A stretch of DNA of 64,000 nucleotides from Aureispira anguillae (GTDB taxonomy: Bacteria > Bacteroidota > Bacteroidia > Chitinophagales > Saprospiraceae), in the NCBI RefSeq assembly GCF_026000115.1, contig NZ_AP026867.1:2777716-2841715 (forward strand). Reading direction: 5' to 3'. Positions within the stretch are counted from its first letter, which is position 1; every line of letters starts with the position of its first letter. The notes below the pieces were generated by a model. It was not told the DNA's origin. It saw only the letters and a list, made by a program, of their open reading frames with translations, and searched no databases. Of this stretch, positions 1 to 62,613 are shown in pieces. Both the position numbers and the translations under genes were made by a program.

Positions 1-3000
1 GAAAAAGCAAACATCCTACAACATTGGTTAGCAGGCGGTGAGCCTAGCAATACTGGTGACCATATTGTTATTGGTCTAGCTAGTTACACTGGTGTTGTTA
101 AATTTGGTTTTTATGCTGCTTCTTCGGTTTCTAACACAGACAACGATGTGTTTATTGACAATTTCTTAGTTACAAACCTTGCTAGCTGTGCTGCTCCTTC
201 TGCTTTAACAGCTTCTAATATCACTACGACTACTGCTGATTTAGCTTGGACAGAAAATGGTACGGCTACTTCTTGGCAAATTGAATATGGTGCACCAGGC
301 TTTACACAAGGTACAGGTACTACTGCTCTTGCTGGAAGCAACCCTCATAACCAAACAGGTTTGATGCCTAGCAGCGATTATCAATTTTATGTTAGAGCGA
401 TTTGTGGTGCTGGTGATACAAGCTCATGGGCTGGTCCATTTAACTTCCAAACGGCTTGTGGTGCTATTGTTGCCCCATGGACTGAATCATTTAGTGGTGG
501 TTTGCCCAACTGTTGGACAGACAGAGGAAACGACGCTTATATCTTTAATACAAGTGCTGCTTATGGTGCTGCTGTTGCTGGTGATTATACCGCTGGTGGA
601 GGTACCAACTATGCATGGGTTGACGGTTCTGGTGCTACTGGAACATTTGATACCTTAACAACTCCTCTGATTGATATTTCGGGACTAGCTACACCGCACT
701 TGTGCTTTGGTTTGTTTAGTAACAACACCAATGATGCAGGCAACAACACCATTATGATCGAATTCTTTGATGGTGCTGCTTGGAATCTATTGGCTACGTT
801 CCAACAAAACTTAGGTCCAGCATGGGCTCCACTTAGCTACGATCTTTCTAGCTATACAGTTACAGGTAATACACAAGTAAGATTTATTATCAATACCAAT
901 TCTACAGGTGATGCTTACTACAACGATATTCTAATTGATGATGTCAGCATGAACAATGGAGGTTGTCCTCAGTTCTGTATTGCTCCATCTGCTTTAGGTA
1001 TTGCCAATTTGCTTCAAACTACTGTAGATTTAAATTGGACAGAAAATGGTGCTGCTACTTCTTGGCAAGTAGAATATGGTGCTCAAGGTTTTGCTCAAGG
1101 TTCTGGTACGGCTGTTGTTACAGCGACCAATCCACATAGCTTGACGGGTCTAACCGATAATACTTCTTATGATTTTTATGTTAGAGCGATTTGCGGTGCT
1201 GGTGACTCTAGTTTGTGGGTAGGACCATTTAACTTTACTACACTAGCAAACTGTCCTCTACCGTCTGCTTTAACAGCAACGAATATTACTCCTACTTCTG
1301 CTGATTTAGGTTGGACAGAAAATGGTACCGCTACTTCTTGGCAAGTAGAATATGGTACACAAGGCTTTGCTCAAGGTTCTGGTACTGCTGTTGTTACTGG
1401 AAACAACCCTGAGAACATTACCGCTCTAGCTTCTAATACCAACTATAGCTTTTATGTAAGAGCAATTTGTGGTGCTGGTGATTCTAGTGCTTGGGTTGGG
1501 CCATTTAACTTTGCTACTCCTTGTGCTTTAGTTCCTGGTGATACTCCTGACGATGCGATTATGGTAACTAGCCTTCCATACAGCACAACAGGTAAAACGG
1601 ATTCTTGCTATATGGATTCTAGAGGAAATGCCAGTGCTGATGTTTGGTATCAATATATTCTTGCTCCATGTACCGATTCTTTGACCGTTTCTTTGTGTGG
1701 TTCTGCTTTTGATACTTACCTACGTATTTTTGCAAGCGATACGACCACTCAGATCTTTGCCAACGATGACAATTGTAGCACCCAATCTGAAATTGTAATT
1801 GATGTTACGGCTTCATCGACTATCAACTCTGGTGATACCATCTTTATTTTGGTAGAAGGATACAGTAGTAACGAAGGGGCTTACAACTTGAATATTTCAG
1901 ATGTTATCCAATGTCCTCCTGTTCCTGCTCCACCTTACTACCACATCGACCAAATCAACTCGGTTGATACCAATGGTGTTGCAGATTCTTTAGGCGTAAT
2001 TGCTAGAGTTAGAGGAGTTGTACACTGTATCGATTTTAGAGCAGGTACTGGACTAGAGTTCTTCCTTGCTGAATATAACAATACAGGTATCAAAGTATTT
2101 GATTTTGCTGATGTAAACGGTTATGCTGTTACAGAAGGCGATTCTTTAGAAGTATGGGGAACCGTTAGTCAATTTAATGGGCACTTGCAATTTGATCCTG
2201 ACAGCATTATTGTTGTTTCTTCAGGAAACCCACTAGTAATGCCAACTACTGTTAGTCAGTTGAGCGAAGCAACAGAAAACAAATTTGTAGACTTCCAAAA
2301 TGCATGGTTAGTAGATCCTGCACAATGGACTGGTTCTGGTTCTGGATTTAATGTAGATGTTACCAATGGTACCGATACTATTGTTGTACGTGTTGACAAT
2401 GCGACCAACTTGTATGCTCAACCAGCACCAACAGGAATGTTTAACATTTCAGGATGGGGCGGTCAGTATGATACCTCTGTTCCTCGCACAGAAGGCTATC
2501 AGTTGTTCCCTTGTGGAATAGCTTCTGTTATGCCAATTGTTATGGACGTAGCAGTAACATCGTTCTTGAACTTAGATTCTACTTATTGTAATGTAGCAGC
2601 TATCTCTGGTTCTGTTATTATTACCAATATGACTTCTAGTGTTGCTACCGACATACCTTATTCAATTACAGCCAATGGTCTTCCATTGAGTGTAGATACG
2701 ATTGCTTCCTTAGCAGGAAATGCGTCTGATACCATCACTGTTGGTCCTATCCCTGCTCTTACTGGAACGGCTTTAGTTCAAGTAACCACTGCTTTGGCAG
2801 GCGATACATCTACTGTTAATGACACCTTAGGAATGATTGTTTCTGTATCGAATACTGCTGCTGCTGCAAGCGCAACAACTACACTTTTGTGTAATGGAGA
2901 TGCTAATGGAATTATTACAGCTACTGGTTCTAATGGTATTGGCAACTATACCTACGCATGGGATTCTACCGCAACAACTGCTGTTCACTCTAACTTAACT

Positions 3001-3795
3001 GCTGGTACCTATACGGTTACAATCACAGATTCTATTGGTTGTTCAGATACTGCTACTGTTATCTTAACAGAGCCTTCAGCTATTGTATTGACGGATTCAA
3101 TTACTAACGTATTGTGTAAAGGTGATTCTACAGGTGCGATCACCCTCGCTGCTACTGGCGGAACTCCTTCTTATACTTTTGCTTGGAGTACTGGTGATAC
3201 CAGCACATCTGCAATGAATCTAGGAGCTGGCACTTATACAATTACCGTTACAGATGCCAATGGTTGTGTAGATAGCATAGCTGCTACTGTTACTCAACCT
3301 GCTACCGCTCTTAATGCATCAATTGTAGACAATGGAGATGGTACGGCTGTTGCTGTTGGTACAGGAGGAACACCTTCTTATACCTTTGCTTGGGATGCTG
3401 CTGCTGGTAACCAAACTACTGATACGGCTACTGCTTTGGTACATAATGGTACTTATGTTGTGACAATTACAGATGCCAATGGTTGTACAGACACTTCTTC
3501 TGTGGTTATTAACTTCATTGGTGTTCAAACCATTGCTAACCTTTCTAGCCTTAACCTATTCCCTAATCCAACTGCTCATAATGCATTTGTAGCGTTGGAT
3601 TTGGTAGAACAAGCTGAGGTTCAGATCAACATCATCAATTCTATTGGTCAAGTTGTTGAAAGCAAAAACTTGGGTACGGTACAATCTGAAACCGTAGAAC
3701 TAAATACTGCTGCTTTGGCTTCTGGTATTTATATGGTTCAATTTAACATTGGACAAGAACAAGTCACTAGAAAGCTTATTATAAGCAAACAATAA
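1..3795 (+). CDS. Giant secreted adhesin-like T9SS cargo protein, 5'-truncated at the window edge (frame open from nt 1). Four FN3-like repeats, a MAM-like domain, SprB-type repeats and a T9SS C-terminal sorting domain.
   Basis: No stop in frame 1 from nt 1 up to the annotated ATG at 148. Repeated 'TENGTATSWQ[IV]EYG...FYVRAICGAGD' modules (FN3-like). 'YYNDILIDDVSM' MAM/LamG-like segment. Repeats 'CNGDANGIITATGSNGIGNYTYAWD', 'TVTITDSIGC' (SprB/CHU-type). C-terminus 'LFPNPTAHNAFVALDL...GIYMVQFNIGQEQVTRKLIISKQ' is typical of a T9SS type-A CTD. Confidence 0.8.
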   Translation, partial: EKANILQHWLAGGEPSNTGDHIVIGLASYTGVVKFGFYAASSVSNTDNDVFIDNFLVTNLASCAAPSALTASNITTTTADLAWTENGTATSWQIEYGAPGFTQGTGTTALAGSNPHNQTGLMPSSDYQFYVRAICGAGDTSSWAGPFNFQTACGAIVAPWTESFSGGLPNCWTDRGNDAYIFNTSAAYGAAVAGDYTAGGGTNYAWVDGSGATGTFDTLTTPLIDISGLATPHLCFGLFSNNTNDAGNNTIMIEFFDGAAWNLLATFQQNLGPAWAPLSYDLSSYTVTGNTQVRFIINTNSTGDAYYNDILIDDVSMNNGGCPQFCIAPSALGIANLLQTTVDLNWTENGAATSWQVEYGAQGFAQGSGTAVVTATNPHSLTGLTDNTSYDFYVRAICGAGDSSLWVGPFNFTTLANCPLPSALTATNITPTSADLGWTENGTATSWQVEYGTQGFAQGSGTAVVTGNNPENITALASNTNYSFYVRAICGAGDSSAWVGPFNFATPCALVPGDTPDDAIMVTSLPYSTTGKTDSCYMDSRGNASADVWYQYILAPCTDSLTVSLCGSAFDTYLRIFASDTTTQIFANDDNCSTQSEIVIDVTASSTINSGDTIFILVEGYSSNEGAYNLNISDVIQCPPVPAPPYYHIDQINSVDTNGVADSLGVIARVRGVVHCIDFRAGTGLEFFLAEYNNTGIKVFDFADVNGYAVTEGDSLEVWGTVSQFNGHLQFDPDSIIVVSSGNPLVMPTTVSQLSEATENKFVDFQNAWLVDPAQWTGSGSGFNVDVTNGTDTIVVRVDNATNLYAQPAPTGMFNISGWGGQYDTSVPRTEGYQLFPCGIASVMPIVMDVAVTSFLNLDSTYCNVAAISGSVIITNMTSSVATDIPYSITANGLPLSVDTIASLAGNASDTITVGPIPALTGTALVQVTTALAGDTSTVNDTLGMIVSVSNTAAAASATTTLLCNGDANGIITATGSNGIGNYTYAWDSTATTAVHSNLTAGTYTVTITDSIGCSDTATVILTEPSAIVLTDSITNVLCKGDSTGAITLAATGGTPSYTFAWSTGDTSTSAMNLGAGTYTITVTDANGCVDSIAATVTQPATALNASIVDNGDGTAVAVGTGGTPSYTFAWDAAAGNQTTDTATALVHNGTYVVTITDANGCTDTSSVVINFIGVQTIANLSSLNLFPNPTAHNAFVALDLVEQAEVQINIINSIGQVVESKNLGTVQSETVELNTAALASGIYMVQFNIGQEQVTRKLIISKQ

Positions 3796-3858: not shown

Positions 3859-4123
3859 TTCACGGTATAAGTTAGCAACCAAAAAAAATATTTTTAAAAT
3901 GTCTTTTAAAAATATAAAACCTTCCTTTTCTGTCAAAAAACAAACAAATTCTTGGTTAAATACAAAATAACAAGCCCCCCCATTAAAAAACTTGCCAATA
4001 ATACTTTATCTTTCGACTGTTAAAGAATCTTTAAAAGCCTCCACGCTGCATTTTACAGGAACCTATTACTTAACTAAAATTGTCAACCTCAAAACAATTT
4101 TTATTAAATTAAAAAACGCAACT

Positions 4124-6733
4124 ATGAAAGTCATTTTTACTAGCTGTCTGCTCTTTTTGTTAGCAAGCACATTGACGACTGCCCAAACTGTTTTTTCAGA
4201 AACATTCAATGGCTCAACAACCCCTACTGGATGGACTAATACCGCAACAACAGGAGGTCCTTGGGCATTCAGCACAGGGGCAGGCTATACTGTTTCTACA
4301 ATCCTAGATCACACCAATAATGGTGGTAATTATGCTTGGATTGATTTTTCTGGACCAGATGCTGGGGTTATTTTAGAAACTCCTGTTATTAACGTTTCTA
4401 CACTAACTGTTCCCTATTTAAAGTTTTATTTTGAAAGTCATTATAATGGAAGCCTAGGTACTTACAATTTAATGTACGTAGAAGCATGGGATGGCTCTGC
4501 ATGGGTAACGGTTACCACCCTACAAGGTGATACTGGCTATGGCTGGGATGAGTATGGCTTCAATGTTACTTCTTATGTCTATGGAGGTAGCAACTTAAGA
4601 ATTCGTTTCCGTGGTGAATCTGGAGGTGCTAGCAATGATTATCATAACGACCTTTTGTTAGACGACGTTGAAGTAATGGAAATGCCCACTTGCCCAACGC
4701 CTAATGGTCTATCAGCTGGTAATATCACTGCTACTTCTGCCGATTTTACTTGGACAGAAAATGGTACGGCTACCAACTGGCAAATCGAATATGGTGCTCA
4801 AGGGTTTACTCAGGGTACTGGTACTTCAGTTTTTACTACCAATAACAATCCACACAACCAAACGGGTTTAGCTTCAAGTACAACATTTGACTTGTATGTT
4901 CGTTCCGTTTGTTCTCCTGGTGATACTAGTGCATGGTTTGGTCCTGTTAATTTCACAACGGCTTGTGCTGTAGCTGTAGCTCCATGGTCTGAAAACTTCT
5001 TTGGAGGTAGTACCCCAAACTGTTGGACAGAATCTGGTTCAGAATCTTGGCGCTATAGTACAAATTCAGGATACGCTTCTGCTTCTGCTGGTGACCATAC
5101 TGGCAATGGTGGTAACTATGCTTGGATTGATGGATCTTCTCCTAGTGGTGCTTCTCAAATCAGTACATTAACAAGTCCCCCTGTTGATGTTAGTGGTTTA
5201 GCAGTTCCTTTGCTTTCTTACTGGGTTTTTTCTCATAATCCTGATGACAACACCTATAATACCCTAACGGTTGAAGTTTATGACGGTGCAGCATGGAGTA
5301 CGGTTAATACAGTTAACACGGATCAAGGAAATGGCTGGGTTAATATGATTGTTGGGCTACAGAATTTAACTATAACTGGTCCTGTACAAGTTCGTTTTAC
5401 TATTGCAGAAAACTCTCCAGGTACTGCTTTTTACAATGATATTTTGATTGATGATGTAGAAATCAAAGATGCTCCTAATGTTTCTGCTGATACTTTACTT
5501 GGGCTACAAACACTTTATTGTAGTGCGGCAGTTAATGTAGATTTAGTTATTCGCAACAAATCTGGTAATGCTGAAAATGATGTTCCATGGGCTGTTGAGT
5601 CTAACGGAATGATCATTGCGAGTGGATCTATTGCTACCATGGCTCCTAATAGTGCAGACACAATTCCTTTATTGTTAGGTGGCGTTGGTCCTGCTGGTCC
5701 TAATGCAGTTATTACAGCTTATACTTATTTAGCAGCTGATCAAACCTCTTCGGACGATACATTAACGGCTAGTGTTGGAATGTCTTATACAGGTGTTAAT
5801 GCCAATGTAACCAACCCTGTTGGATGTACTGGTAGCGCCAATGGACAAATTGTATCTGCTGGACATAGCGGAATAGGTGCTTATACTTATTTGTGGGATG
5901 CTGCTGCTGGTAGCCAAACTTCTAGTACGGCATCTGGTTTAGCCGCTGGTACTTATACCCTAACTGTTACAGATTCTATTGGTTGTTCTTCTGTTGCTAC
6001 ACTAACTCTAATAGATCCTCCAACAATGTCATTGAATAGCTCTAGCACAGATCTAACTTGTAATGGGAATAATAGCGGAACAGCTAACGTTACTGCTACA
6101 GGTGGTGTTCCTGGTTATGCTTACCTATGGTCTAATGGTCAAATGAGTAGCCAATTAATGAATGCTGCTGCTGGCACTTATATGGTAACGGTAACCGATG
6201 CCAATGGTTGTGAAATGACCGACTCTGTTACACTAACTGAGCCTACTGTTTTTGGAGCAACTGTTATTGACAATTCTGATGGAACTGCTACAGCTAGTGC
6301 AACTGGAGGAGTAGCTCCTTACACTTATCAATGGGGACCCAATGCAGGCAATCAAACAGGTGCTACAGCTTCTGGTTTGACAACTGGTGGTGTTTACTAT
6401 GTAGTTGTTACAGATGCCAATGGCTGTACAGATGTTGTTTCTTTCCAAGCAATTGTTCTTGATGTAGAAACAATCAATGCAAATACTAACATAAGCATGT
6501 ATCCTAACCCTAGTAGCGGTAATGTTTTTGTTGAATTGAATTTAGTGGAAACCAATGACGTTATCATTAGCATCACTAATGTAACAGGTCAAGTTGTTAT
6601 GACACACCAATTGGGGCAAACTAATTCTAACAAAGTTGAATTAGAAACTACGTCTTTACCAACTGGTATCTACATGGTTCAATTTAATGTAGGTTCTGAG
6701 CAAATAACCAAGAAATTAATTCTTACGAAATAA
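4124..6733 (+). CDS. Secreted adhesin-like T9SS cargo protein, paralog of the previous gene (two MAM-like domains, one FN3, SprB-type repeats, T9SS CTD)
   Basis: Signal peptide 'MKVIFTSCLLFLLASTLTTAQT' at an internal Met (the track ORF starts at 3992, but the signal peptide argues for 4124). 'TENGTATNWQIEYGAQGF', 'FYNDILIDDVEI', 'CTGSANGQIVSAGHSGIGAYTYLWD'. C-terminus 'MYPNPSSGNVFVELNL...GIYMVQFNVGSEQITKKLILTK'. Confidence 0.8.
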   Translation: MKVIFTSCLLFLLASTLTTAQTVFSETFNGSTTPTGWTNTATTGGPWAFSTGAGYTVSTILDHTNNGGNYAWIDFSGPDAGVILETPVINVSTLTVPYLKFYFESHYNGSLGTYNLMYVEAWDGSAWVTVTTLQGDTGYGWDEYGFNVTSYVYGGSNLRIRFRGESGGASNDYHNDLLLDDVEVMEMPTCPTPNGLSAGNITATSADFTWTENGTATNWQIEYGAQGFTQGTGTSVFTTNNNPHNQTGLASSTTFDLYVRSVCSPGDTSAWFGPVNFTTACAVAVAPWSENFFGGSTPNCWTESGSESWRYSTNSGYASASAGDHTGNGGNYAWIDGSSPSGASQISTLTSPPVDVSGLAVPLLSYWVFSHNPDDNTYNTLTVEVYDGAAWSTVNTVNTDQGNGWVNMIVGLQNLTITGPVQVRFTIAENSPGTAFYNDILIDDVEIKDAPNVSADTLLGLQTLYCSAAVNVDLVIRNKSGNAENDVPWAVESNGMIIASGSIATMAPNSADTIPLLLGGVGPAGPNAVITAYTYLAADQTSSDDTLTASVGMSYTGVNANVTNPVGCTGSANGQIVSAGHSGIGAYTYLWDAAAGSQTSSTASGLAAGTYTLTVTDSIGCSSVATLTLIDPPTMSLNSSSTDLTCNGNNSGTANVTATGGVPGYAYLWSNGQMSSQLMNAAAGTYMVTVTDANGCEMTDSVTLTEPTVFGATVIDNSDGTATASATGGVAPYTYQWGPNAGNQTGATASGLTTGGVYYVVVTDANGCTDVVSFQAIVLDVETINANTNISMYPNPSSGNVFVELNLVETNDVIISITNVTGQVVMTHQLGQTNSNKVELETTSLPTGIYMVQFNVGSEQITKKLILTK

Positions 6734-6825: not shown

Positions 6826-6972
6826 CAAAAACAAACGAGCCAATGATGAATGATCACCATTGGCTCGTTTTAATAAAAAAGGAGCAGAAATACACCAGCT
6901 GCTACAACCACCTACCCTTGCTTGCTTTCACACCTGGGGGATTTAATGGGAGCTTGCCATGTATCTCCAACT
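6826..6972 (-). ncRNA. Candidate small RNA, copy A (minus strand): -7 promoter box, ~145-nt body, intrinsic terminator hairpin
   Basis: Minus strand reads ...TTATATTTG (a Bacteroidota TAnnTTTG -7 box at 6980..6987) with a TTG ~22 nt further upstream. The transcript would end in a 13-bp perfect hairpin (AAACGAGCCAATG/CATTGGCTCGTTT, 6833..6880) followed by U-rich sequence. The overlapping + strand ORFs in the two copies are in different frames, so the unit is not coding. Confidence 0.35.
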
Positions 6973-6995
6973 CCGAGTGCAAATATAAGACACTT
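6833..6995. repeat. Copy A of a ~165-bp direct repeat (about 95% identical to copy B)
   Basis: Aligns nearly base-for-base with 7252..7415: 'aaacgagccaatgatgaatgatcaccattggctcgttttaataaaaaaggagcagaaa.acaccagctgctacaaccacctacccttgcttgctttcacacctgggggatttaatgggagcttgccatg.atctccaactccg.gtgcaaatataaga'. Confidence 0.9.
6980..6987 (-). promoter_or_regulatory. Bacteroidota-type -7 promoter element (TATATTTG) for sRNA candidate copy A
   Basis: rc of CAAATATA; conserved in both repeat copies. Confidence 0.35.
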
Positions 6996-7245
6996 TTTCT
7001 ATTTTTGCAATTTCTAATCCTATAATTAGCTTTTTTTTTAATAATAATTTGATTCCCTCTCAAGCTCCATTTCATAAGTAATACACGATCAAGTATTAAG
7101 GCTTTTTTTATTCTGAATTATTTTTTGAAAAAATTTAACTATTTTTCAATCTGGGTAATCTCAGTGCCATTTTACTTCAAACAAACCTCCCTATAACTTC
7201 CGAATATTATCCTTGTTTTCCCTTTTTCTTTCCTTCAAAATTTCT

Positions 7246-7392
7246 AATAAAAAACGAGCCAATGATGAATAATCACCATTGGCTCGTTTTAATAAAAAAG
7301 GAGCAGAAACACACCAGCTGCTACAACCACCTACCCTTGCTTGCTTTCACACCTGGGGGATTTAATGGGAGCTTGCCATGCATCTCCAACTC
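7246..7392 (-). ncRNA. Candidate small RNA, copy B (minus strand)
   Basis: Same architecture as copy A: -7 box TTATATTTG (rc at 7399..7406), hairpin 7252..7289, followed on the minus strand by TTTTTTATT. Confidence 0.35.
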
Positions 7393-7415
7393 CGTGTGCA
7401 AATATAAGATGCTTT
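7252..7415. repeat. Copy B of the ~165-bp direct repeat
   Basis: See copy A. The two copies start 419 bp apart, in the intergenic region between convergent genes. Confidence 0.9.
7399..7406 (-). promoter_or_regulatory. Bacteroidota-type -7 promoter element (TATATTTG) for sRNA candidate copy B
   Basis: rc of CAAATATA; conserved in both repeat copies. Confidence 0.35.
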
Positions 7416-7677
7416 TTCCATTCTAACAAGCTTTCTCCAAAAATAAATTCCTTCCTTTTTACAAGACATTGGCTATCAATATTTATTTTTTTATTTTTTC
7501 TTAAAATTATTTTTCAATTATAATTCAAAGACTTTTTTTCCCATTTATGATAAAATGGAATCGTTTTTTGCTCCTAAACTTAAAGTCTATTTCTTCTATT
7601 TTTTCTAAGGTGTGGCTTTCCCTTTTTAGACTCAAAGTTGATAGAACTATTTTATAAATGCAGTTGTAGTCTTAATC

Positions 7678-16369: not shown

Positions 16370-16620
16370 ACAATCAGCTTCTATAGTTTTTATGTTTTGT
16401 TCTTTGATAACTTCTAGTTTGTCAAAGCATTTAAGTCAATCGCTTTGTTTCGGCTACTTTGAGCTACCAAAGTTCCTTATTTTACAAGTTACAAAGCTTA
16501 AGATAAAAAACAAAACGCTTATTCCATATTAATCCTTCTTTTGTCATATTTTTTTATGATTTTGTAAAAAAAAACAGCTCAGTTTGTACTTCAAATCGCA
16601 GGTTAATAAGTTAAAAACAT

Positions 16621-16821
16621 TGGTTCTTTGACAAATTGTGTGGAATCGTAAACTACCTTGCCTGCTTATTACTACTTTTGTTATAAGTTATAGGTCGTAA
16701 GTCGTATGCCCTGTATTTACAGGAACTAAGCATACAACTTACGACCTATAACTTTCTTCTAAAAAAGTAGTTAAAAGCTTACCCTTTTTTAGTATTTACC
16801 ACACGACTTATCAAAGAACCA
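16621..16821. mobile_element. Palindromic MITE-like element, copy 1 (imperfect ~23-bp terminal inverted repeats, central 23-bp stem-loop)
   Basis: TIRs TGGTTCTTTGAcaaattGTGTGG / CCACACgacttaTCAAAGAACCA. Core 'gttataggtcgtaagtcgtatgc cctgtatttacaggaactaa gcatacaacttacgacctataac'. A second copy lies at 54211..54478 in inverted orientation. Confidence 0.55.
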
Positions 16822-16897
16822 AAATATTTAAAGCCTCATTTATTGCCTTTCTTTTTATAGCTTTGTCAACACATCTACAAAAACCTATTTTAGTACA

Positions 16898-27642: not shown

Positions 27643-28163
27643 GTAGATATAGATCGTAAATTTTAAATTGAAGTTGTCAGATGTTGTTGTCTAAAAAACA
27701 ACGCCGCAAAAATAATACTAAAAAAAGAAATAGAGCATTTTTTATTAATTAAGAATCTATATTCATACAAAACAGCTAATAATATCGTTCTACTACCAAA
27801 AAGAATTTATTGCTTCTAAGTAAGTCGATGGACCATACCATTAGCAATACTGCTAATGTGTGGTTATCAAAGAAGCAATTTTCTATTTTACAGCTTGTTC
27901 TAGGAATAGCTCTACTTTTTTAGGGCAAATTCCATTTATTTTTTAATTTTAGGTCAAAATTATAATACTCCGCTGATTGGCTCCCTATGGTCATGAGATA
28001 GTTGTTTAGTTTTTGAAGAAAAAAACATAAAAAGCATCTTACATAAATTTGATAATCAGCATTTTAATACTTTGACCAACAAGATTACACGTTGCTAATT
28101 ATCAAGTTGATACGATTTTCTAGCGGAGTAATGAATTAACTACCATATAGATATCAATACTTT

Positions 28164-46648: not shown

Positions 46649-46749
46649 CCTTCATTTAGAATCTCTTGTTAATTGCAGTTGAAGCTCAATCTTCTTTATT
46701 TCGGTTGTTTCTATTATCTTCTTTGCCCAACTGCACCAAAAAACTACGA

Positions 46750-49122
46750 ATGAAAAATATACTCATCTTTTTATGCTCTTTTATAGGTATCTGTTCCATT
46801 GTTGCACAAGAAACCCCAAGTCAAACAATTCGTGGAAAAGTTGTTGATAAAGTCAGCCAAATGCCTCTAATTGGAGTAGTAATTTTAGTGGCCGAAACCG
46901 ATTTAAATACCACCTCTGATATTGATGGAAATTTTGTATTAGAAAACGTGCCGATTGGTCGCCAAATTATAACCACTCAGTACCTTGGCTATGAACCTTA
47001 CATTTCCGAAGATTTAATTATTTCTTCTAGCAAGGAAATGTATTTAGAGATTGGGCTGACCGAACAAGTCGAAGTCACCGAAACCGTTGTCGTAACGGCC
47101 TCTGGAAGTGCAGATGGTGTAGGGAATCAAGCAATCAATGATTTATCGGTGGTTAGTGCTCGCTCTTTTTCGGTAGAAGAAACGAAACGATATGCCGCAA
47201 GCATTGACGACCCTGGGCGTATGGCAGCAGCATTACCTGGTATTCAAACCGATCAGGACAATGAAAATGATGTTGTTATTCGTGGTAATTCTGCTTTTGG
47301 GGTACTGTGGAGAATGGAAGGACTCGAAATTCCCAACCCTACTCATTTTGGTCGCCCTGGCACTACAGGCGGTGGAATTTCTGTTTTTAGTGCTTCTGTC
47401 TTAGGCAATACCGACCTCTCTACAGGAGGTTTTGCCGCCGAATATGGCAATGCCTTATCGGGTGTTTTTGATATGCGAAACCGCCGAGGAAATATGGTCA
47501 ACAGAGAGCATTCTATCAAAATTGGACTAATTGGTTTAGGGGCATCTACTGAAGGACCAATTAAGAAAGGTCGAAGTTCTTATTTGATTAATTACCGCTA
47601 TTCTACCTTGGGAATTCTCAATGCAATAGGTATGTATGTTGTTCGTGAAAATGTTGGAAATAATTTTCAAGACTTATCCTTTAACCTGACCTTTAACTCT
47701 AAAGATAATAAAGATGAATTTAAGATTTTTGGAATTGGTGGTTTAAGCGATGAAATATGGTTTACCAAAGAAGATACAACCGAATGGAAAACTTATTTGG
47801 ATTATATTGACGAGAGAAACGGTTCTAATTTAGGTATTTTAGGCTTTACTTACCGACGTTTAATCAACGAAAAATCTTACCTAAAAGTAGTCTTAGGAAC
47901 GGTATTGAATCATCATTATCTAAAACAAGCCATTCCCAATTTGACCACACTGGACATTAAAGACAAAGATGTTGTTGAAGATTATGATTATAAAACATTA
48001 AGAAGTCAATTGCACCTTACTTATAGCAATAAATTAAGCAATCGTTTTCGGCTAAAAGCAGGTGCTTCTTTAAGTGCCAATACCTATTGGTTGCGCAATA
48101 GTGTAGACAATGGCAATGGCGATTATAATTACTTGGATAATGTTAATGGCAATACTTTTTTGGTGCAAGCCTATGCGCAAGGGAGTTATCGCCCAATGGA
48201 AAAACTAACCTTTAACTTTGGTTTCCATGCCCTATTGCTTACCCTCAACAATACCTATAGTATAGAGCCTAGAGTTTCTATGCAATATAAGCCATTCAAA
48301 AATACAACCCTTAGTGCCGCTTATGGTTTGCATGGCAAAGCCTTGCCCATTGGGACTTATTTGTTGCAATTGCCTGATGCTTCTGGTGCAATTACACAAC
48401 CCAATAGAAATTTAAAAATTGCCAAAGCGCACCATGCTATACTCGCCTTTCAACAAGTTATTGGCTTAGGCTTTCGCCTCAACCTTGAAGGTTACTATCA
48501 ATATACCTTTGACAATCCAACCAGCCCCATTCCCAATAGCGGTTATTGGTTCCTTAATGAACGAGATAATTATGGAACTCAAGCAATGGTTTCTGAAGGG
48601 CAAGGACAAAACTATGGGGTGGATTTAAGCATTGAGAAGGCATTTAGCCGCAACTTCTTTATTTTGGCAACGGGTTCTTTGTTTTGGTCTCAATACAAAT
48701 CTTTGGGGGATGAGTTTTGGAGACGTACTAGAATTGACAAAAGATGGGGCGTTGCTGTTATGGGAGGCTATGAATTTACCTTCAAAAAAGGCGGTGTTTT
48801 ACAAATTGGTCTAAAATCCTTTGTTTCTGGCGGGCTGCGCTATACGCCTGCCGATGTTGAAGCCTCTAAAAAAGCAGGGGTGCTGGTAGAAGATACCAAC
48901 AATTATTGGGGGGCTTCCTCTGGAACTTATTTCCGTTTAGATGGTCGCATTGCTTATCGAAAAGATCACAAAAAGCTTTCTTATACCATTTCTTTGGATG
49001 TACAAAACATTACCAATACCAAAAATGTTCGCTATTTTATTTATGATCGTACTGAGGGCACTTTAGTACCACGCCATCAATCTGGCTTGTTGCCTGTTAT
49101 CAGTTTCCAAATTGATTTTTAA
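46750..49122 (+). CDS. TonB-dependent-receptor-like outer-membrane beta-barrel protein with an N-terminal CarboxypepD_reg domain (tandem paralog 1)
   Basis: Signal peptide at the internal Met 'MKNILIFLCSFIGICSIVAQ'. 'IRGKVVDKVSQMPLIGVVILVAETDLNTTSDIDGNFVL'. Plug-like 'DLSVVSARSFSVEETKRYAASIDDPGRMAAALPGIQ...NDVVIRGNS'. C-terminal 'VISFQIDF'. Confidence 0.7.
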   Translation: MKNILIFLCSFIGICSIVAQETPSQTIRGKVVDKVSQMPLIGVVILVAETDLNTTSDIDGNFVLENVPIGRQIITTQYLGYEPYISEDLIISSSKEMYLEIGLTEQVEVTETVVVTASGSADGVGNQAINDLSVVSARSFSVEETKRYAASIDDPGRMAAALPGIQTDQDNENDVVIRGNSAFGVLWRMEGLEIPNPTHFGRPGTTGGGISVFSASVLGNTDLSTGGFAAEYGNALSGVFDMRNRRGNMVNREHSIKIGLIGLGASTEGPIKKGRSSYLINYRYSTLGILNAIGMYVVRENVGNNFQDLSFNLTFNSKDNKDEFKIFGIGGLSDEIWFTKEDTTEWKTYLDYIDERNGSNLGILGFTYRRLINEKSYLKVVLGTVLNHHYLKQAIPNLTTLDIKDKDVVEDYDYKTLRSQLHLTYSNKLSNRFRLKAGASLSANTYWLRNSVDNGNGDYNYLDNVNGNTFLVQAYAQGSYRPMEKLTFNFGFHALLLTLNNTYSIEPRVSMQYKPFKNTTLSAAYGLHGKALPIGTYLLQLPDASGAITQPNRNLKIAKAHHAILAFQQVIGLGFRLNLEGYYQYTFDNPTSPIPNSGYWFLNERDNYGTQAMVSEGQGQNYGVDLSIEKAFSRNFFILATGSLFWSQYKSLGDEFWRRTRIDKRWGVAVMGGYEFTFKKGGVLQIGLKSFVSGGLRYTPADVEASKKAGVLVEDTNNYWGASSGTYFRLDGRIAYRKDHKKLSYTISLDVQNITNTKNVRYFIYDRTEGTLVPRHQSGLLPVISFQIDF

Positions 49123-49429: not shown

Positions 49430-51805
49430 ATGAAATATCTATTTTGCTTGTTTCTATATTTAACCTCAAGTTTTATTTTAGTTGCCCAAGACGACAAAAC
49501 TCAAACCATCCGTGGTAAAGTAGTTGACCATGCCAGCCAGATGCCACTAATTGGTGTAGTCTTAATGGTTAGTGAAACAAATATCAATAGTGTTTCTGAC
49601 GAAAATGGCAATTTTGTTTTGGAACAAGTGCCACTAGGCCGCCAAACCATCAATGCTCAATATTTGGGCTACGAGCCTTATACCTCTGAAGACCTGATTA
49701 TCTCCTCTAGTAAAGAACCTTACCTAGATATTTTGCTAAAGGAACAGGTAGAAGTCACAGAGACGGTAGTGGTAAAAGCATCTAAAGGTGCAGATGGCGT
49801 TGGCAATCAAGCCCTCAATGATTTATCTGTCGTTAGTACCCGTTCTTTTTCGGTAGAAGAAACCAAACGTTATGCCGCAAGCATTGATGACCCAGGGCGT
49901 ATGGCAGCAGCACTTCCTGGCGTTCAAAGTGATCAAGACAATGAAAATGATGTTATCATTCGTGGCAATTCCTCTGCGGGGGTATTGTGGCGTTTAGAAG
50001 GCTTAGAGATCACCAACCCAACTCACTTTGCCCGCCCTGCTTCTACGGGGGGTGGGATTACGGTTTTTAGTGCCGCATTATTGGGGAATACTGATTTTTC
50101 TACGGGAGGTTTTGCTGCTGAATATGGCAACGCCTTTTCTGGTGTTTTTGATATGAGATTCCGAAAAGGCAATATGACGCAACGAGAACATTCTGCCAAA
50201 ATTGGTTTGGTGGGACTAGGTTTTGCAACAGAAGGGCCTATGAAAAAAGGAAGGAGTTCTTATTTAATCAATTATCGCTATTCTACACTTGGTGTTCTAA
50301 ATGCTATGGGCTTGTATGTCGTTCGAGAAAATGCCTCTAACAATTTTCAAGATTTATCTTTTTGCTTCACTTTTAATTCTAAAGACAACAAAAACGAATT
50401 TAAGATTTTTGGCGTTGGTGGTAATAGTGACGAGCTTTGGTGGGTCAAAGAGGATACCGCAGATTGGCAAAACAATTGGGATTATCAATACGAAAAAGCA
50501 GGCTCTAACCTAGGAGTTTTGGGGCTAAGTTATCGCCGACTTATCAACGAAAAATCTTACCTAAAAGCTACCGTTGGTTCTGTTTTTAGCCACATTTTTT
50601 CGACTCAGTATGAACCAGAAATCACAAATTTAGAGAATAGAGATACCTTTGAGGTTTATGACTTTAAAATTTTGCGTACTCAAGCACATCTAACTTATAG
50701 TTACAAATTTAGCAATCAATTTAGATTAAAAGCAGGTGGGTTGTTTCATGCCATTAGCCATTGGCTCAACCTAAGCGAACGACGCCCCACAGATGCCGTC
50801 AATCAGCAGTATTTAGCCCTTGGAGATGCCAATACGGATATTTTGCTGCAAGGTTACGCCCAAGGAAGCTACCGCCCCACTAGTCAACTGACCATTAATG
50901 CTGGGGTACATGCTATGTATTTTGCCATGAATAATACTTATAGTATTGAACCTAGGCTCTCGGTGCAATACAAACCTTTTTCGAAAACAACCCTTAGTGC
51001 CGCTTATGGTCTACATGGGAAAGTTATCCCAATTGGGACGTATTATCTTAGAATAAAAGATCAACAGGGCAATTATAGCCAACCCAACAAAAATTTAAAA
51101 ATTGCCAAATGGCACCATGCCATCCTCTCTTACCAACAAGTAATCGGTTTAGGGTTCCGAGCAACGCTAGAAGCCTATTATCAATATGGTTTTGATATTC
51201 CTACTAGCCCTGATAGTTCTAGTACTTATTGGTTATTTAATGAGCGTCAAGCTTATGGCTATGAAGCGATGATTTCGGAAGGGCAAGCACAAAACTATGG
51301 TATAGATATGACGCTAGAAAAAGCGTTTGGTCGAAACTTTTTTATTTTGTTAACGGGCTCTATTTATCAATCTCAATACAAATCTTTAGGCGATACAGAG
51401 TGGAGAAACACTAGGGTCAATAAGGGTTGGGGAACTAGCTTAATGGGAGGTTATGAGTTTGTGTTCAAAAAAGGAGGCGTATTACAGGTTGGTCTTAAGA
51501 ACTTTTTGGCAGGAGGCATACGTTATACCCCTGCTGACGAAGCAGCATCCAAAACCGCTGGCGCATTGATAGAGGACAGCAACAATGCTTTTGGGGCACA
51601 GGCTCCTATTTATTTTAGATTAGATACCCGAATTGCCTATCGAAAAGATCACAAAAAACTTTCTTACACCATTGCTTTAGACATTCAAAATGTGGCGAAT
51701 CATAAGAATATTATTTATTATGCTTATGATCGACAAAAAAACAGCTTATTTCCTCGTTACCAATCGGGTCTTTTGCCTGTTATCAGTATTCAGATTGATT
51801 TTTAA
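49430..51805 (+). CDS. TonB-dependent-receptor-like outer-membrane beta-barrel protein (tandem paralog 2, about 70% identical)
   Basis: 'IRGKVVDHASQMPLIGVVLMVSETNINSVSDENGNFVL', 'NDVIIRGNS', C-terminal 'VISIQIDF'. Confidence 0.7.
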   Translation: MKYLFCLFLYLTSSFILVAQDDKTQTIRGKVVDHASQMPLIGVVLMVSETNINSVSDENGNFVLEQVPLGRQTINAQYLGYEPYTSEDLIISSSKEPYLDILLKEQVEVTETVVVKASKGADGVGNQALNDLSVVSTRSFSVEETKRYAASIDDPGRMAAALPGVQSDQDNENDVIIRGNSSAGVLWRLEGLEITNPTHFARPASTGGGITVFSAALLGNTDFSTGGFAAEYGNAFSGVFDMRFRKGNMTQREHSAKIGLVGLGFATEGPMKKGRSSYLINYRYSTLGVLNAMGLYVVRENASNNFQDLSFCFTFNSKDNKNEFKIFGVGGNSDELWWVKEDTADWQNNWDYQYEKAGSNLGVLGLSYRRLINEKSYLKATVGSVFSHIFSTQYEPEITNLENRDTFEVYDFKILRTQAHLTYSYKFSNQFRLKAGGLFHAISHWLNLSERRPTDAVNQQYLALGDANTDILLQGYAQGSYRPTSQLTINAGVHAMYFAMNNTYSIEPRLSVQYKPFSKTTLSAAYGLHGKVIPIGTYYLRIKDQQGNYSQPNKNLKIAKWHHAILSYQQVIGLGFRATLEAYYQYGFDIPTSPDSSSTYWLFNERQAYGYEAMISEGQAQNYGIDMTLEKAFGRNFFILLTGSIYQSQYKSLGDTEWRNTRVNKGWGTSLMGGYEFVFKKGGVLQVGLKNFLAGGIRYTPADEAASKTAGALIEDSNNAFGAQAPIYFRLDTRIAYRKDHKKLSYTIALDIQNVANHKNIIYYAYDRQKNSLFPRYQSGLLPVISIQIDF

Positions 51806-53890: not shown

Positions 53891-54210
53891 TCTATTCTAT
53901 GCTATTTTCTAAAAACTTTTCTAATTCTATTTCTGTTATACTAATAAGTAACTAATAAATGCCTACTTTTTTAAAATCTGATGGAATGGGCTTTTTCTAA
54001 TCGGCTATTAGAAGCTAAATCCCTGCATATTTAGACATTAAATACAAGGCTCGATGGAGCATAATGCCTAAATTCCAAAAGCAAAGAGATCTAAAAATAG
54101 CCAAAAGCTAACCCAATTTTAATTTTTATAGAAATTGTCAGGTAAACAAATAATCCATATTACAATATACTAAATACATGGTGTAATAAAAATGGACGAT
54201 ATAAAAATAA

Positions 54211-54478
54211 TGGTTCTTTGATAAATCGTGTGGTAAACACTAAAAAAGGGTAAGCTTTTAACTACTTTTTAGCTTCGCTGCTAGGCATCTCCGTTGGTAC
54301 ACCATACCAAACTCTCGTGCACTACGTTTATGTGGTTTAGTAGAAAGTTATAAGTCGTAAGTCGTATGTCCTGTATTTACAGGAACTAAGCATACGACTT
54401 ACGACCTATAACTTATAACAAAAGTAGTAATAAGCAGGCAAGGTAGTTTACGATTCCACACCATTTGTCAAAGAACCA
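54211..54478. mobile_element. Palindromic MITE-like element, copy 2 (inverted relative to copy 1, with a ~70-bp internal insertion)
   Basis: TIRs TGGTTCTTTGAtaaatcGTGTGG / CCACACcatttgTCAAAGAACCA. Same central hairpin 'gttataagtcgtaagtcgtatgtcctgtatttacaggaactaagcatacgacttacgacctataac'. Confidence 0.55.
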
Positions 54479-54623
54479 AAATAATTAAGTACAGCTATAG
54501 GCTAGGTCTGTTGTTAAATCCACTTAGTTAATTATCTTTATGGAAGCTTTAGGCCTAAAGTAACTCAATATTATGTTAAAAAAATTATACCAACATTTAT
54601 TTAAGCAAAAAAAAAATATCAAT

Positions 54624-60639: not shown

Positions 60640-61271
60640 TTAACGTTATGTTTTGTTATTCTTAAGATGATGCTAATCCTTTTGCGCCCCTATTCAACCT
60701 AAAATAAATCCGTCTAAAAAGTTGTTTTTGGTAGCGATCGTTTAAATATGCCGCAAAAGTAGTATAAAAAAAACAGTTTACAACAAATTTTTATAGCTTT
60801 TCTAACTGTTGAGCAAAACATTAAACATTAATTTAATATGATCTCAAAAGCTAAGTTCTACATTTCATGAAGAATTAAGTCATCTATAACGTTTTAGGTC
60901 ACACTAAGAAATAATTTAGAAAAATTACCATCCAAAAAAATGAAGTGTTAAAATTTTGCCTCATTTTCTTTTATTTTTAAGCGTTTTAAAAAAAATAGAG
61001 TCAACGACAAGTGTGTAACTTCACTTTTTGGTTAAACAAAAAAGTAGAAACTGCATTATTACAGCATGCATCCATCTAAATTTTATTAATTACCTTTGCT
61101 AAACTGTAGCAACCCACAACAAATTTTATAAGGATTAATAAATAAGACTTATAAAGTAATTAAACTAAAGTTATTTTTTTTTACCTTGATATTAGAAAAT
61201 GCTACGGCAAACTTAAAATCCCACCAGAGTTGCCAAAGAACCCAATATTATAAAATATTTATTCTATTATT

Positions 61272-61688
61272 ATGAGTTTATTATTACCAATTTTAGCCAT
61301 CGTCACAGGCTCACTTGCTGCCGCTTCTGTTGTTATCAAAAAATCGCCTGATGCGGCCAACCTAATCCAAAAAATCAAGCCCTACGAAGCGTTTATAGGT
61401 GCAGCATCCCTTATTGTAGGAACATTGTCGCTCCTAAGCATCACTACCTATTTTAGGGCCAACTTCATTTATGGGTCTATTTGCACAGCCTGTATTGTTT
61501 CTTGTATTGTTATGGGATTTTTGCTAGGTTACCCTGTTTTGCAAGACTTTTTGTTGGATGAACTTAGTGAAGATGCTAGAGCAAAAAGCAAAGAAATTTA
61601 TGAGCGCCTAACTCCCTATAAAATAAGCTCAGGTTTAGTGGCAATGGGTACAGGTGCCTATTTACTGATTACAGGAATTTTATTCTAA
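61272..61688 (+). CDS. Small 4-TM membrane protein, unknown function
   Basis: Four hydrophobic segments. No recognised motif. Confidence 0.5.
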   Translation: MSLLLPILAIVTGSLAAASVVIKKSPDAANLIQKIKPYEAFIGAASLIVGTLSLLSITTYFRANFIYGSICTACIVSCIVMGFLLGYPVLQDFLLDELSEDARAKSKEIYERLTPYKISSGLVAMGTGAYLLITGILF

Positions 61689-62341: not shown

Positions 62342-62613
62342 ATTCAATTGTTTCTGAAATTAAAAAATAGCTTGATCCTTGGCTAAAGCTAAAACACACC
62401 TACAAAACTGATAAACAAATCCCTACCTACTTTTTTTTCTTATTAATCTTGGAAATTCATTTTTTTTTGATTCAACTAGAATTGACAAAATTATCAAAGA
62501 ACCAATTTTATTAATTACTTTTGCTTTCAAGTTAATTGATTTGAATTAGAACTAATGGAAAATTGTTTCATTCCAAACTCAAATCTTCAAACCTTCAAAT
62601 TAAAATAAGTACT

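Follow-up and report, generated by a model that had tools for sequence, protein, structure and literature searches.

Two palindromic intergenic repeats of Aureispira anguillae, very probably non-autonomous MITEs of the ISL3 insertion-sequence family

Results

Two inverted copies of one palindromic element

Two long palindromic repeats within a 64-kb stretch of Aureispira anguillae (Saprospiraceae) DNA are, with a probability of about 0.93, non-autonomous miniature inverted-repeat transposable elements (MITEs) of the ISL3 insertion-sequence family. The whole of this stretch is called the window below. Each copy consists of two 22-bp ISL3-type ends around a non-coding and largely palindromic interior unrelated to ISL3 elements, and is bordered by an 8-bp A+T-rich duplication. 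The mobile miniature inverted-repeat element that a preliminary description had considered is thus supported by the 8-bp duplications and by the existence of full-length ISL3 elements with the same ends.

The two intact copies occupy positions 16622-16820 (copy 1, 199 bp) and 54212-54477 (copy 2, 266 bp) and have the 22-bp terminal inverted repeats GGTTCTTTGAYAARTNGTGTGG in common. The preliminary description had located both palindromes and their repeats correctly, as judged from sequence and alignment, while its boundaries (201 and 268 bp) ran one base too far at each end; the true ends are GG...CC, as set by the target-site duplications and by the full-length insertion sequences. When the terminal 23-mer TGGTTCTTTGAYAAATYGTGTGG was searched with at most one mismatch, the window gave four matches forming two inverted pairs (16621-16643, + strand; 16799-16821, - strand; 54211-54233, + strand; 54456-54478, - strand), and 100 dinucleotide shuffles gave none. 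Meanwhile, the central-stem 15-mer GTCGTAAGTCGTATG occurs four times in the window, with 0.01 occurrences expected. Both copies possess a 24-bp central stem with a 20-nt loop, and neither contains an open reading frame (ORF) of 60 aa or longer. The parts of the two copies are as follows.

16622-16820, + strand: MITE copy 1, arm order A - stem/loop - B, delimited by terminal repeats and 8-bp duplication
16622-16643, + strand: left terminal inverted repeat of copy 1 (GGTTCTTTGACAAATTGTGTGG), 22/22 against the left end of the full-length element L059
16686-16753, + strand: central hairpin of copy 1, stems 16686-16709 and 16730-16753, loop 16710-16729 (inverted repeat I4 and predicted fold)
16799-16820, - strand: right terminal inverted repeat of copy 1 (GGTTCTTTGATAAGTCGTGTGG on the - strand)
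54212-54477, - strand: MITE copy 2, inverted relative to copy 1, + strand arm order B - stem/loop - A (alignment A1, repeats I1 and I2)
54212-54233, + strand: terminal inverted repeat of copy 2 on the rimM side (GGTTCTTTGATAAATCGTGTGG)
54346-54413, + strand: central hairpin of copy 2, stems 54346-54368 and 54391-54413, loop 54370-54389
54456-54477, - strand: terminal inverted repeat of copy 2 on the ytxJ side (GGTTCTTTGACAAATGGTGTGG on the - strand)

The arms of copy 2 are the arms of copy 1 reversed, as detected by the repeat finder (I1, 99 nt at 95%; I2, 83 nt at 87%) and in the four-way alignment A1.

Repeated coding DNA was also seen elsewhere in the window. The + strand ORFs at 46666-49122 and 49430-51805 (818 and 791 aa) lie next to each other and are paralogous, several blocks of their DNA being ~70-78% identical, and the large ORFs at the window start (148-3795 and 3992-6733) contain repeated coding units spaced ~220-790 bp apart.

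Target-site duplications at both copies

A target-site duplication of 8 bp is typical of the ISL3 family. Duplications of this length, which the preliminary description had named as a sign to look for, were found at both copies: the flanks of copy 2 match perfectly (8/8), and those of copy 1 carry one mismatch (AAAACATT vs AAAATATT).

16614-16621, no strand: left target-site duplication of copy 1 (AAAACATT), adjoining the GG end, 7/8 against the right flank
16821-16828, no strand: right target-site duplication of copy 1 (AAAATATT)
54204-54211, no strand: left target-site duplication of copy 2 (AAAATAAT), 8/8 match to 54478-54485
54478-54485, no strand: right target-site duplication of copy 2 (AAAATAAT)

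Similar duplications flank other members of the family described below. Among 22 paired members, the two flanks agree at 7 or more of the 8 positions in 16, of which 10 have perfect duplications, while only 6% of the control pairs made of non-cognate left and right flanks reach 7/8. The signal is confined to 8-bp flanks taken at the GG/CC ends, and the duplicated sites are A+T-rich with a T at the end nearly always.

Full-length ISL3 elements carry the same ends

An exact copy of the terminal sequence on a Rhodothermales contig (L022) is followed, just inside it, by an open frame encoding an ISL3 transposase with the Pfam domains DDE_Tnp_ISL3 (1.2e-55), Zn_ribbon_ISL3 and HTH_Tnp_ISL3. A protein search with this transposase returned a large family of 397-aa proteins, many of them on contigs of ~1.25-1.4 kb, and the DNA behind three such proteins proved to be complete elements of 1256-1258 bp with the 22-mer at both ends. 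A cognate full-length insertion sequence with the same terminal repeats, for which the preliminary description had suggested a search, therefore exists and encodes an ISL3 transposase. The hosts are other Bacteroidota and Rhodothermales assemblies. The proteins P0126 (from L042) and P0157 (from L039-L041) score 320-323 bits against the NCBIfam ISL3 model NF033550 (cut-off 180), and the element-encoded proteins carry Pfam PF01610, PF14690 and PF13542.

The ends of these elements agree closely with those in the window. L042 shows no mismatch to the repeat pattern at either end and has the duplication GTTTATTT on both sides; the left repeat of copy 1 is 21/22 identical to both of its ends. L043/L044 deviates from the pattern by one and three mismatches and is flanked on both sides by a perfect 8-bp duplication, AAAAATAT. 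L047 (1258 bp) is likewise flanked by a perfect 8-bp duplication, ATTTTTTT, and the left end of L059 (1256 bp) is identical to that of copy 1 at 22/22 positions. The Saprospiraceae element from which P0157 derives (L039-L041) has a two-base variant of the repeat. A second metagenome scan with the repeat added 22 more stretches, among them MITEs of 62-237 bp and the full-length elements L047, L059 and two of ~1365 bp. The latter two (L050:175-1540 and L057:229-1590) have the same 22-bp end as well, and their ISL3 transposase is ~33% identical to the 397-aa clade; hence the end is either conserved far beyond that transposase clade or exchanged between clades.

The full-length elements are almost wholly coding, with a start codon ~20 bp inward of the left repeat and a stop codon directly next to the right one. 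The MITE interior is therefore not derived from them. BLAST of both window copies against seven full-length elements aligned the terminal 22-25 nt only, and since nothing is common beyond the ends, the MITE is not a simple internal-deletion derivative.

Cognate elements are present in other Saprospiraceae (L039) and other Bacteroidota. However, tblastn with three cognate transposases gave no ISL3 transposase gene in the 64-kb window or in the loci fetched from Aureispira metagenome-assembled genomes (MAGs), and the 120 best transposase homologues include no match named Aureispira. An autonomous partner in the A. anguillae genome is therefore putative, and both copies could be fossils that no longer move. 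The bounding ends expected of an autonomous partner ISL3 gene in A. anguillae would be GGTTCTTTGA...TCAAAGAACC.

Palindromic intergenic repeats could also be moved by other machinery, and the hairpin together with the inverted loop described below could suggest single-strand intermediates. The copies might then be REP/BIME repeats moved by a RAYT, or palindrome-associated elements derived from IS200/IS605, a group that transposes in single-stranded form. REP/BIME repeats associated with RAYTs are imperfect palindromes of ~20-40 bp with neither long terminal inverted repeats nor target-site duplication, and IS200/IS605-derived elements have subterminal hairpins and a Y1 HUH transposase, again with neither terminal inverted repeats nor duplication. 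The window copies do have 22-bp terminal repeats and an 8-bp duplication, and the transposase associated with their ends is of the DDE ISL3 type instead of Y1/HUH, so that this origin is extremely unlikely. Membership in REP/BIME was rejected on the size of the element (199-266 bp), its 22-bp repeats and its 8-bp duplication; membership in the IS200/IS605-derived class was rejected on the repeats, the duplication and the associated DDE ISL3 transposase.

A wider family with a constant end and variable interiors

An exact scan for the terminal sequence, with one genome per species, returned 32 stretches. Nearly all of them are MAGs labelled Aureispira, Saprospiraceae, Saprospirales or Chitinophagales, with one Rhodothermales and one Cytophagales match; A. 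anguillae is not among the 32. When mismatches were allowed, mostly inverted pairs 90-550 bp apart were found. With the family members set in register, the 22-bp end is constant, while the interiors are lineage-specific and usually palindromic, some of them being perfect hairpins of ~100 bp. A constant end with a variable interior is the pattern of non-autonomous elements sharing a transposase-binding end, not that of a conserved RNA or regulatory site. In other collections, the window-type central stem gave no match in JGI metagenomes, the terminal repeat gave none in viral contigs, and BLASTN of copy 1 against the PLSDB plasmids gave none.

A subfamily in Aureispira MAGs (for example L001:6746-6937, L008:917-1113 and L012:6108-6305) has CGTTC instead of GGTTC at one end almost always, and the element closes with ...GAACG in 10 of 11 copies. 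This fixed end asymmetry is absent from the window copies.

When up to one mismatch is allowed, the 13-mer forming the repeat's outer core has eight occurrences in the window (0.38 expected). The fragments beyond the two intact copies are probably decayed solo ends or collapsed mini-elements, and the following two are convincing.

61221-61242, - strand: intergenic GGTTCTTTGGCAACTCTGGTGG, 30 bp upstream of the ORF at 61272, agreeing with the repeat consensus at 18/22 positions; probably the relic of a solo end
62491-62503, - strand: intergenic GGTTCTTTGATAA, agreeing with the outer core at 13/13 positions; probably the relic of a solo end

Counted within the 64-kb window, there are two intact elements and at least two end relics. 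Two weak cases (27855-27876 and 16398-16432) are intergenic look-alikes of the ISL3-type terminal repeat.

Intergenic positions and neighbouring promoters

The element lies between an ion-channel gene (- strand) and a gene for a DUF5686 protein (+ strand) at locus 1, and between the genes for RimM (- strand) and YtxJ/BrxC (+ strand) at locus 2. The distances to the neighbouring ORFs are 77 bp (locus 1) and 95 bp (locus 2) on the + strand side, and 252 and 321 bp on the - strand side. The DUF5686 protein is 100% identical to a protein named from A. anguillae. The gene identities of the preliminary description, with its channel gene confirmed as an ion channel, as well as its spacings held good on re-examination. 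Its suggestion that the element inserts into promoters between divergent genes over-read two cases. Of the 27 family members examined, every one occupies intergenic DNA and none falls within an ORF, and the contexts of the 23 classifiable members, which rest on mechanically called ORFs, are 13 tandem, 9 divergent and 1 convergent. The distances of the members to neighbouring ORFs range from 7 to 716 bp. The family is therefore intergenic with a preference for A+T-rich targets and without specificity for divergent promoters.

TAnnTTTG is the consensus of the Bacteroidetes-type promoter -7 box. A perfect box of this type, TAGCTTTG, is found at 16858-16865, between copy 1 and the start of the DUF5686 gene. 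On the other side, upstream of the ion-channel gene, the block ACAAGTTACAAAGCTT...AAAAAACAAAA (16486-16520) is invariant in four Aureispira-like genomes (alignment A2), while the surrounding intergenic DNA is unalignable. The block probably serves the channel gene as promoter or operator. With the box on one side and the conserved block on the other, copy 1 would sit between two core promoters and outside both.

Related species lack the element and near-identical strains keep it

In relatives with conserved gene order, the intergenic region orthologous to locus 1 measures 206 bp (L034) or 268 bp (L037/L038) vs 528 bp in the window, and that orthologous to locus 2 measures 121 bp (L068) vs 682 bp. 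The terminal repeat was not found in the orthologous intergenic regions of L034, L037/L038 or L068. As the flanking proteins of these relatives are only ~73-77% identical, their intergenic DNA is unalignable base for base and gives no base-exact empty site.

The closer strains compared at locus 2 all carry the insertion. Both element ends are found at exactly the same locus-2 site in the near-identical strains or populations SRR35212566 and SRR35212567; the rimM-side end of copy 2 is at this site in L071 and L072, and the ytxJ-side end in L069 and L070. Hence the insertion at locus 2 predates the divergence of these strains. As the arms differ by 5-13% between the copies and locus 2 is common to near-identical strains, both insertions are probably not recent. 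The short-read (Logan) contigs of the window strain and of related strains all break inside the element, as is to be expected of a repeat.

Predicted hairpins and the regulatory readings

Copy 1 is predicted to fold into a long imperfect hairpin. The predicted hairpins reach -77 kcal/mol (copy 1) and -98 kcal/mol (copy 2), with z scores of -9.8 and -5.6 for the minimum free energy of the interior. At gathering thresholds, Rfam 15 matched nothing on either copy, and its only match in the window is one SRP RNA. The sole sub-threshold match on the elements is to a microRNA-precursor model, at 30.6 bits vs a threshold of 63. Among the 11 copies of the related Aureispira subfamily, stem covariation is essentially nil (covariation term +0.63, double changes in 3 of 42 pairs).

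The SRP RNA is itself one of a pair. Tandem copies of the small SRP RNA (RF04183) lie on the - strand at 6877-6981 and 7296-7400, within a direct repeat of 184 nt that is 93% identical (6827-7010 and 7246-7429), and a 39-nt hairpin comes after each (6833-6871 and 7251-7289). The first copy scores 55.6 bits vs a gathering threshold of 55.2, and the second, at 51.1 bits, falls below it. To our knowledge, most bacteria have a single SRP RNA gene and a duplicate is unusual.

A long stable hairpin found twice in a 5' intergenic region might be taken for an immobile, host-encoded structured RNA gene or a cis-regulatory palindrome, with the two copies as paralogous regulatory sites. We consider this very unlikely: an 8-bp target-site duplication borders each copy, the termini are identical to those of transposase-bearing insertion sequences, no Rfam family is reached at gathering score, the orthologous loci of related species lack the element, and the arms are oppositely oriented at the two loci. 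The REP-like or regulatory palindrome offered as an option in the preliminary description was set aside on similar evidence, as only the termini are conserved across lineages, no relevant Rfam match exists and covariation is nil.

The copies could instead be MITEs that have since been domesticated, so that the hairpin now acts in cis at both loci as an RNase III-targeted or transcript-stabilising hairpin, an attenuator or a promoter carrier, with the 77/95-bp spacing being functional. The strength of the predicted hairpins would suit such a role, as would the retention of the locus-2 insertion in several near-identical strains and the rarity among family members of convergent, terminator-only settings (1 of 23). 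However, the similar spacing rests on two cases, in a family with distances from 7 to 716 bp and every context type; the interior is not conserved across lineages; and stem covariation is nearly absent (+0.63; 3/42 pairs). A TAnnTTTG-type motif, TACTTTTG, which reads inward from arm A at 16673-16680, would fit a promoter carrier, but ~0.3-0.5 such motifs are expected per element by chance, the motif is absent from related subfamilies, and both core promoters of locus 1 seem to lie outside the element. Domestication is thus unlikely. The hairpin may have an effect in cis on its neighbours, and nothing in the data requires one.

An inverted loop and a variable interior

The preliminary description had called copy 2 inverted, which is right for both arms and wrong for the central loop. 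On the + strand, the 20-nt loops of the two copies (16710-16729 and 54370-54389; direct repeat D12, alignment A1) run in the same direction, while the arms are inverted. The loop has therefore been flipped relative to the arms in one copy. No recurrent loop flips were found in the related Aureispira subfamily (none in 11 copies), so the flip in the window counts as a single event.

Copy 2 also carries an extra segment in one arm, whose size is corrected here from the ~70 bp given earlier to 67 bp.

54270-54336, + strand: 67-bp segment present in copy 2 only, TTTAG at both borders, a gap in alignment A1

This segment has no second occurrence in the window or in the 66 loci fetched by the time of the search, and it shows no significant fold. 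The contig L067 (Logan ERR13986111), whose positions 1-75 are orthologous to ~54212-54290 of the window, has a flank ~96% identical to that of copy 2 and still shows the duplication together with the outermost 18 bp of the end facing rimM. Beyond these 18 bp, its interior is entirely unlike copy 2. A 13-nt motif, TAGCAGCGAAGCT, is common to the L067 interior and the 67-bp segment of copy 2. As the simplest guess, the L067 interior arose by internal rearrangement or by conversion from another subfamily.

The loop flip and the unlike interior of L067 could be signs that the palindromic core of this MITE family is unusually plastic in vivo, which we regard as rather unlikely. If it were so, by frequent hairpin- or cruciform-driven template switching or by module exchange between copies, these MITEs would offer a natural readout of how palindromes behave in Bacteroidota, and some copies might work in cis as switchable elements. 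Only two features are out of the ordinary, and both mildly so: the inverted loop, and an interior that is specific to one strain at one of the loci.

Discussion

Mechanism and implications

Taken as ISL3-type MITEs, the two copies can be given a simple history. A DDE transposase of the ISL3 family, supplied in trans by a full-length element, would bind both ends, move the element and insert it at a staggered 8-bp cut, and repair of this cut would leave the 8-bp duplication. The positions between divergent genes would then reflect a preference for A+T-rich targets and a tolerance of intergenic insertions. The flipped loop and the variable interiors may be by-products of the palindrome, produced by recombination inside the element, by a switch of template from one stem arm to the other at replication, or by gene conversion between copies.

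The repeats are of an ordinary bacterial kind and involve no new regulatory device and no new mechanism. For annotation, the two palindromes are best masked as ISL3-type MITEs, together with several dozen repeats like them in MAGs of Saprospiraceae, instead of being entered as regulatory RNAs or promoters. For assembly, such repeats account for short-read contig breaks in these genomes. The comparison also defines a Bacteroidota/Rhodothermales clade of very compact ISL3 elements with a highly conserved 22-bp end and many palindromic MITE offshoots.

Comparison with known systems

A regulatory effect has been documented for Correia elements, and none for the Aureispira MITE. The classical palindromic MITEs of bacteria, such as the Correia elements of Neisseria or MITEAba12 of Acinetobacter (PMC6382973), are like the Aureispira MITE in that they are short, form hairpins between genes, have terminal repeats and a target duplication, and fall into many subfamilies. 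They differ from it in parent insertion-sequence family, duplication length and host phylum.

A closer parallel in end type comes from Microcystis aeruginosa, in which a 187-nt stem-loop MITE with the ends GGCTCTTCG and 8-nt direct repeats has been ascribed to transposases of the ISL3 family (PMC11448079). ISL3 elements of ~1.2 kb have matching terminal repeats, and mobilisation in trans by an ISL3 transposase was inferred (PMC11448079). Like it, the Aureispira MITE is non-coding, measures ~190 nt, forms a stem-loop and combines GG-starting ISL3-type ends with an 8-nt duplication. The ends themselves are different: those of the cyanobacterial MITE are GGCTCTTCG, of which 9 nt are conserved, whereas those of Aureispira are GGTTCTTTGACAAAT.GTGTGG, of which 22 nt are conserved. 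The Microcystis MITE was caught moving between laboratory strains, whereas the mobility of the Aureispira MITE is inferred only.

The full-length ISL3 elements (L042, L043/L044, L039-L041, L047 and L059) are coding and 1256-1258 bp long, and the Aureispira MITE shares only the ends with them. At these ends, the 22-bp sequence agrees at up to 22/22 positions and the duplication is 8 bp long and A+T-rich in both.
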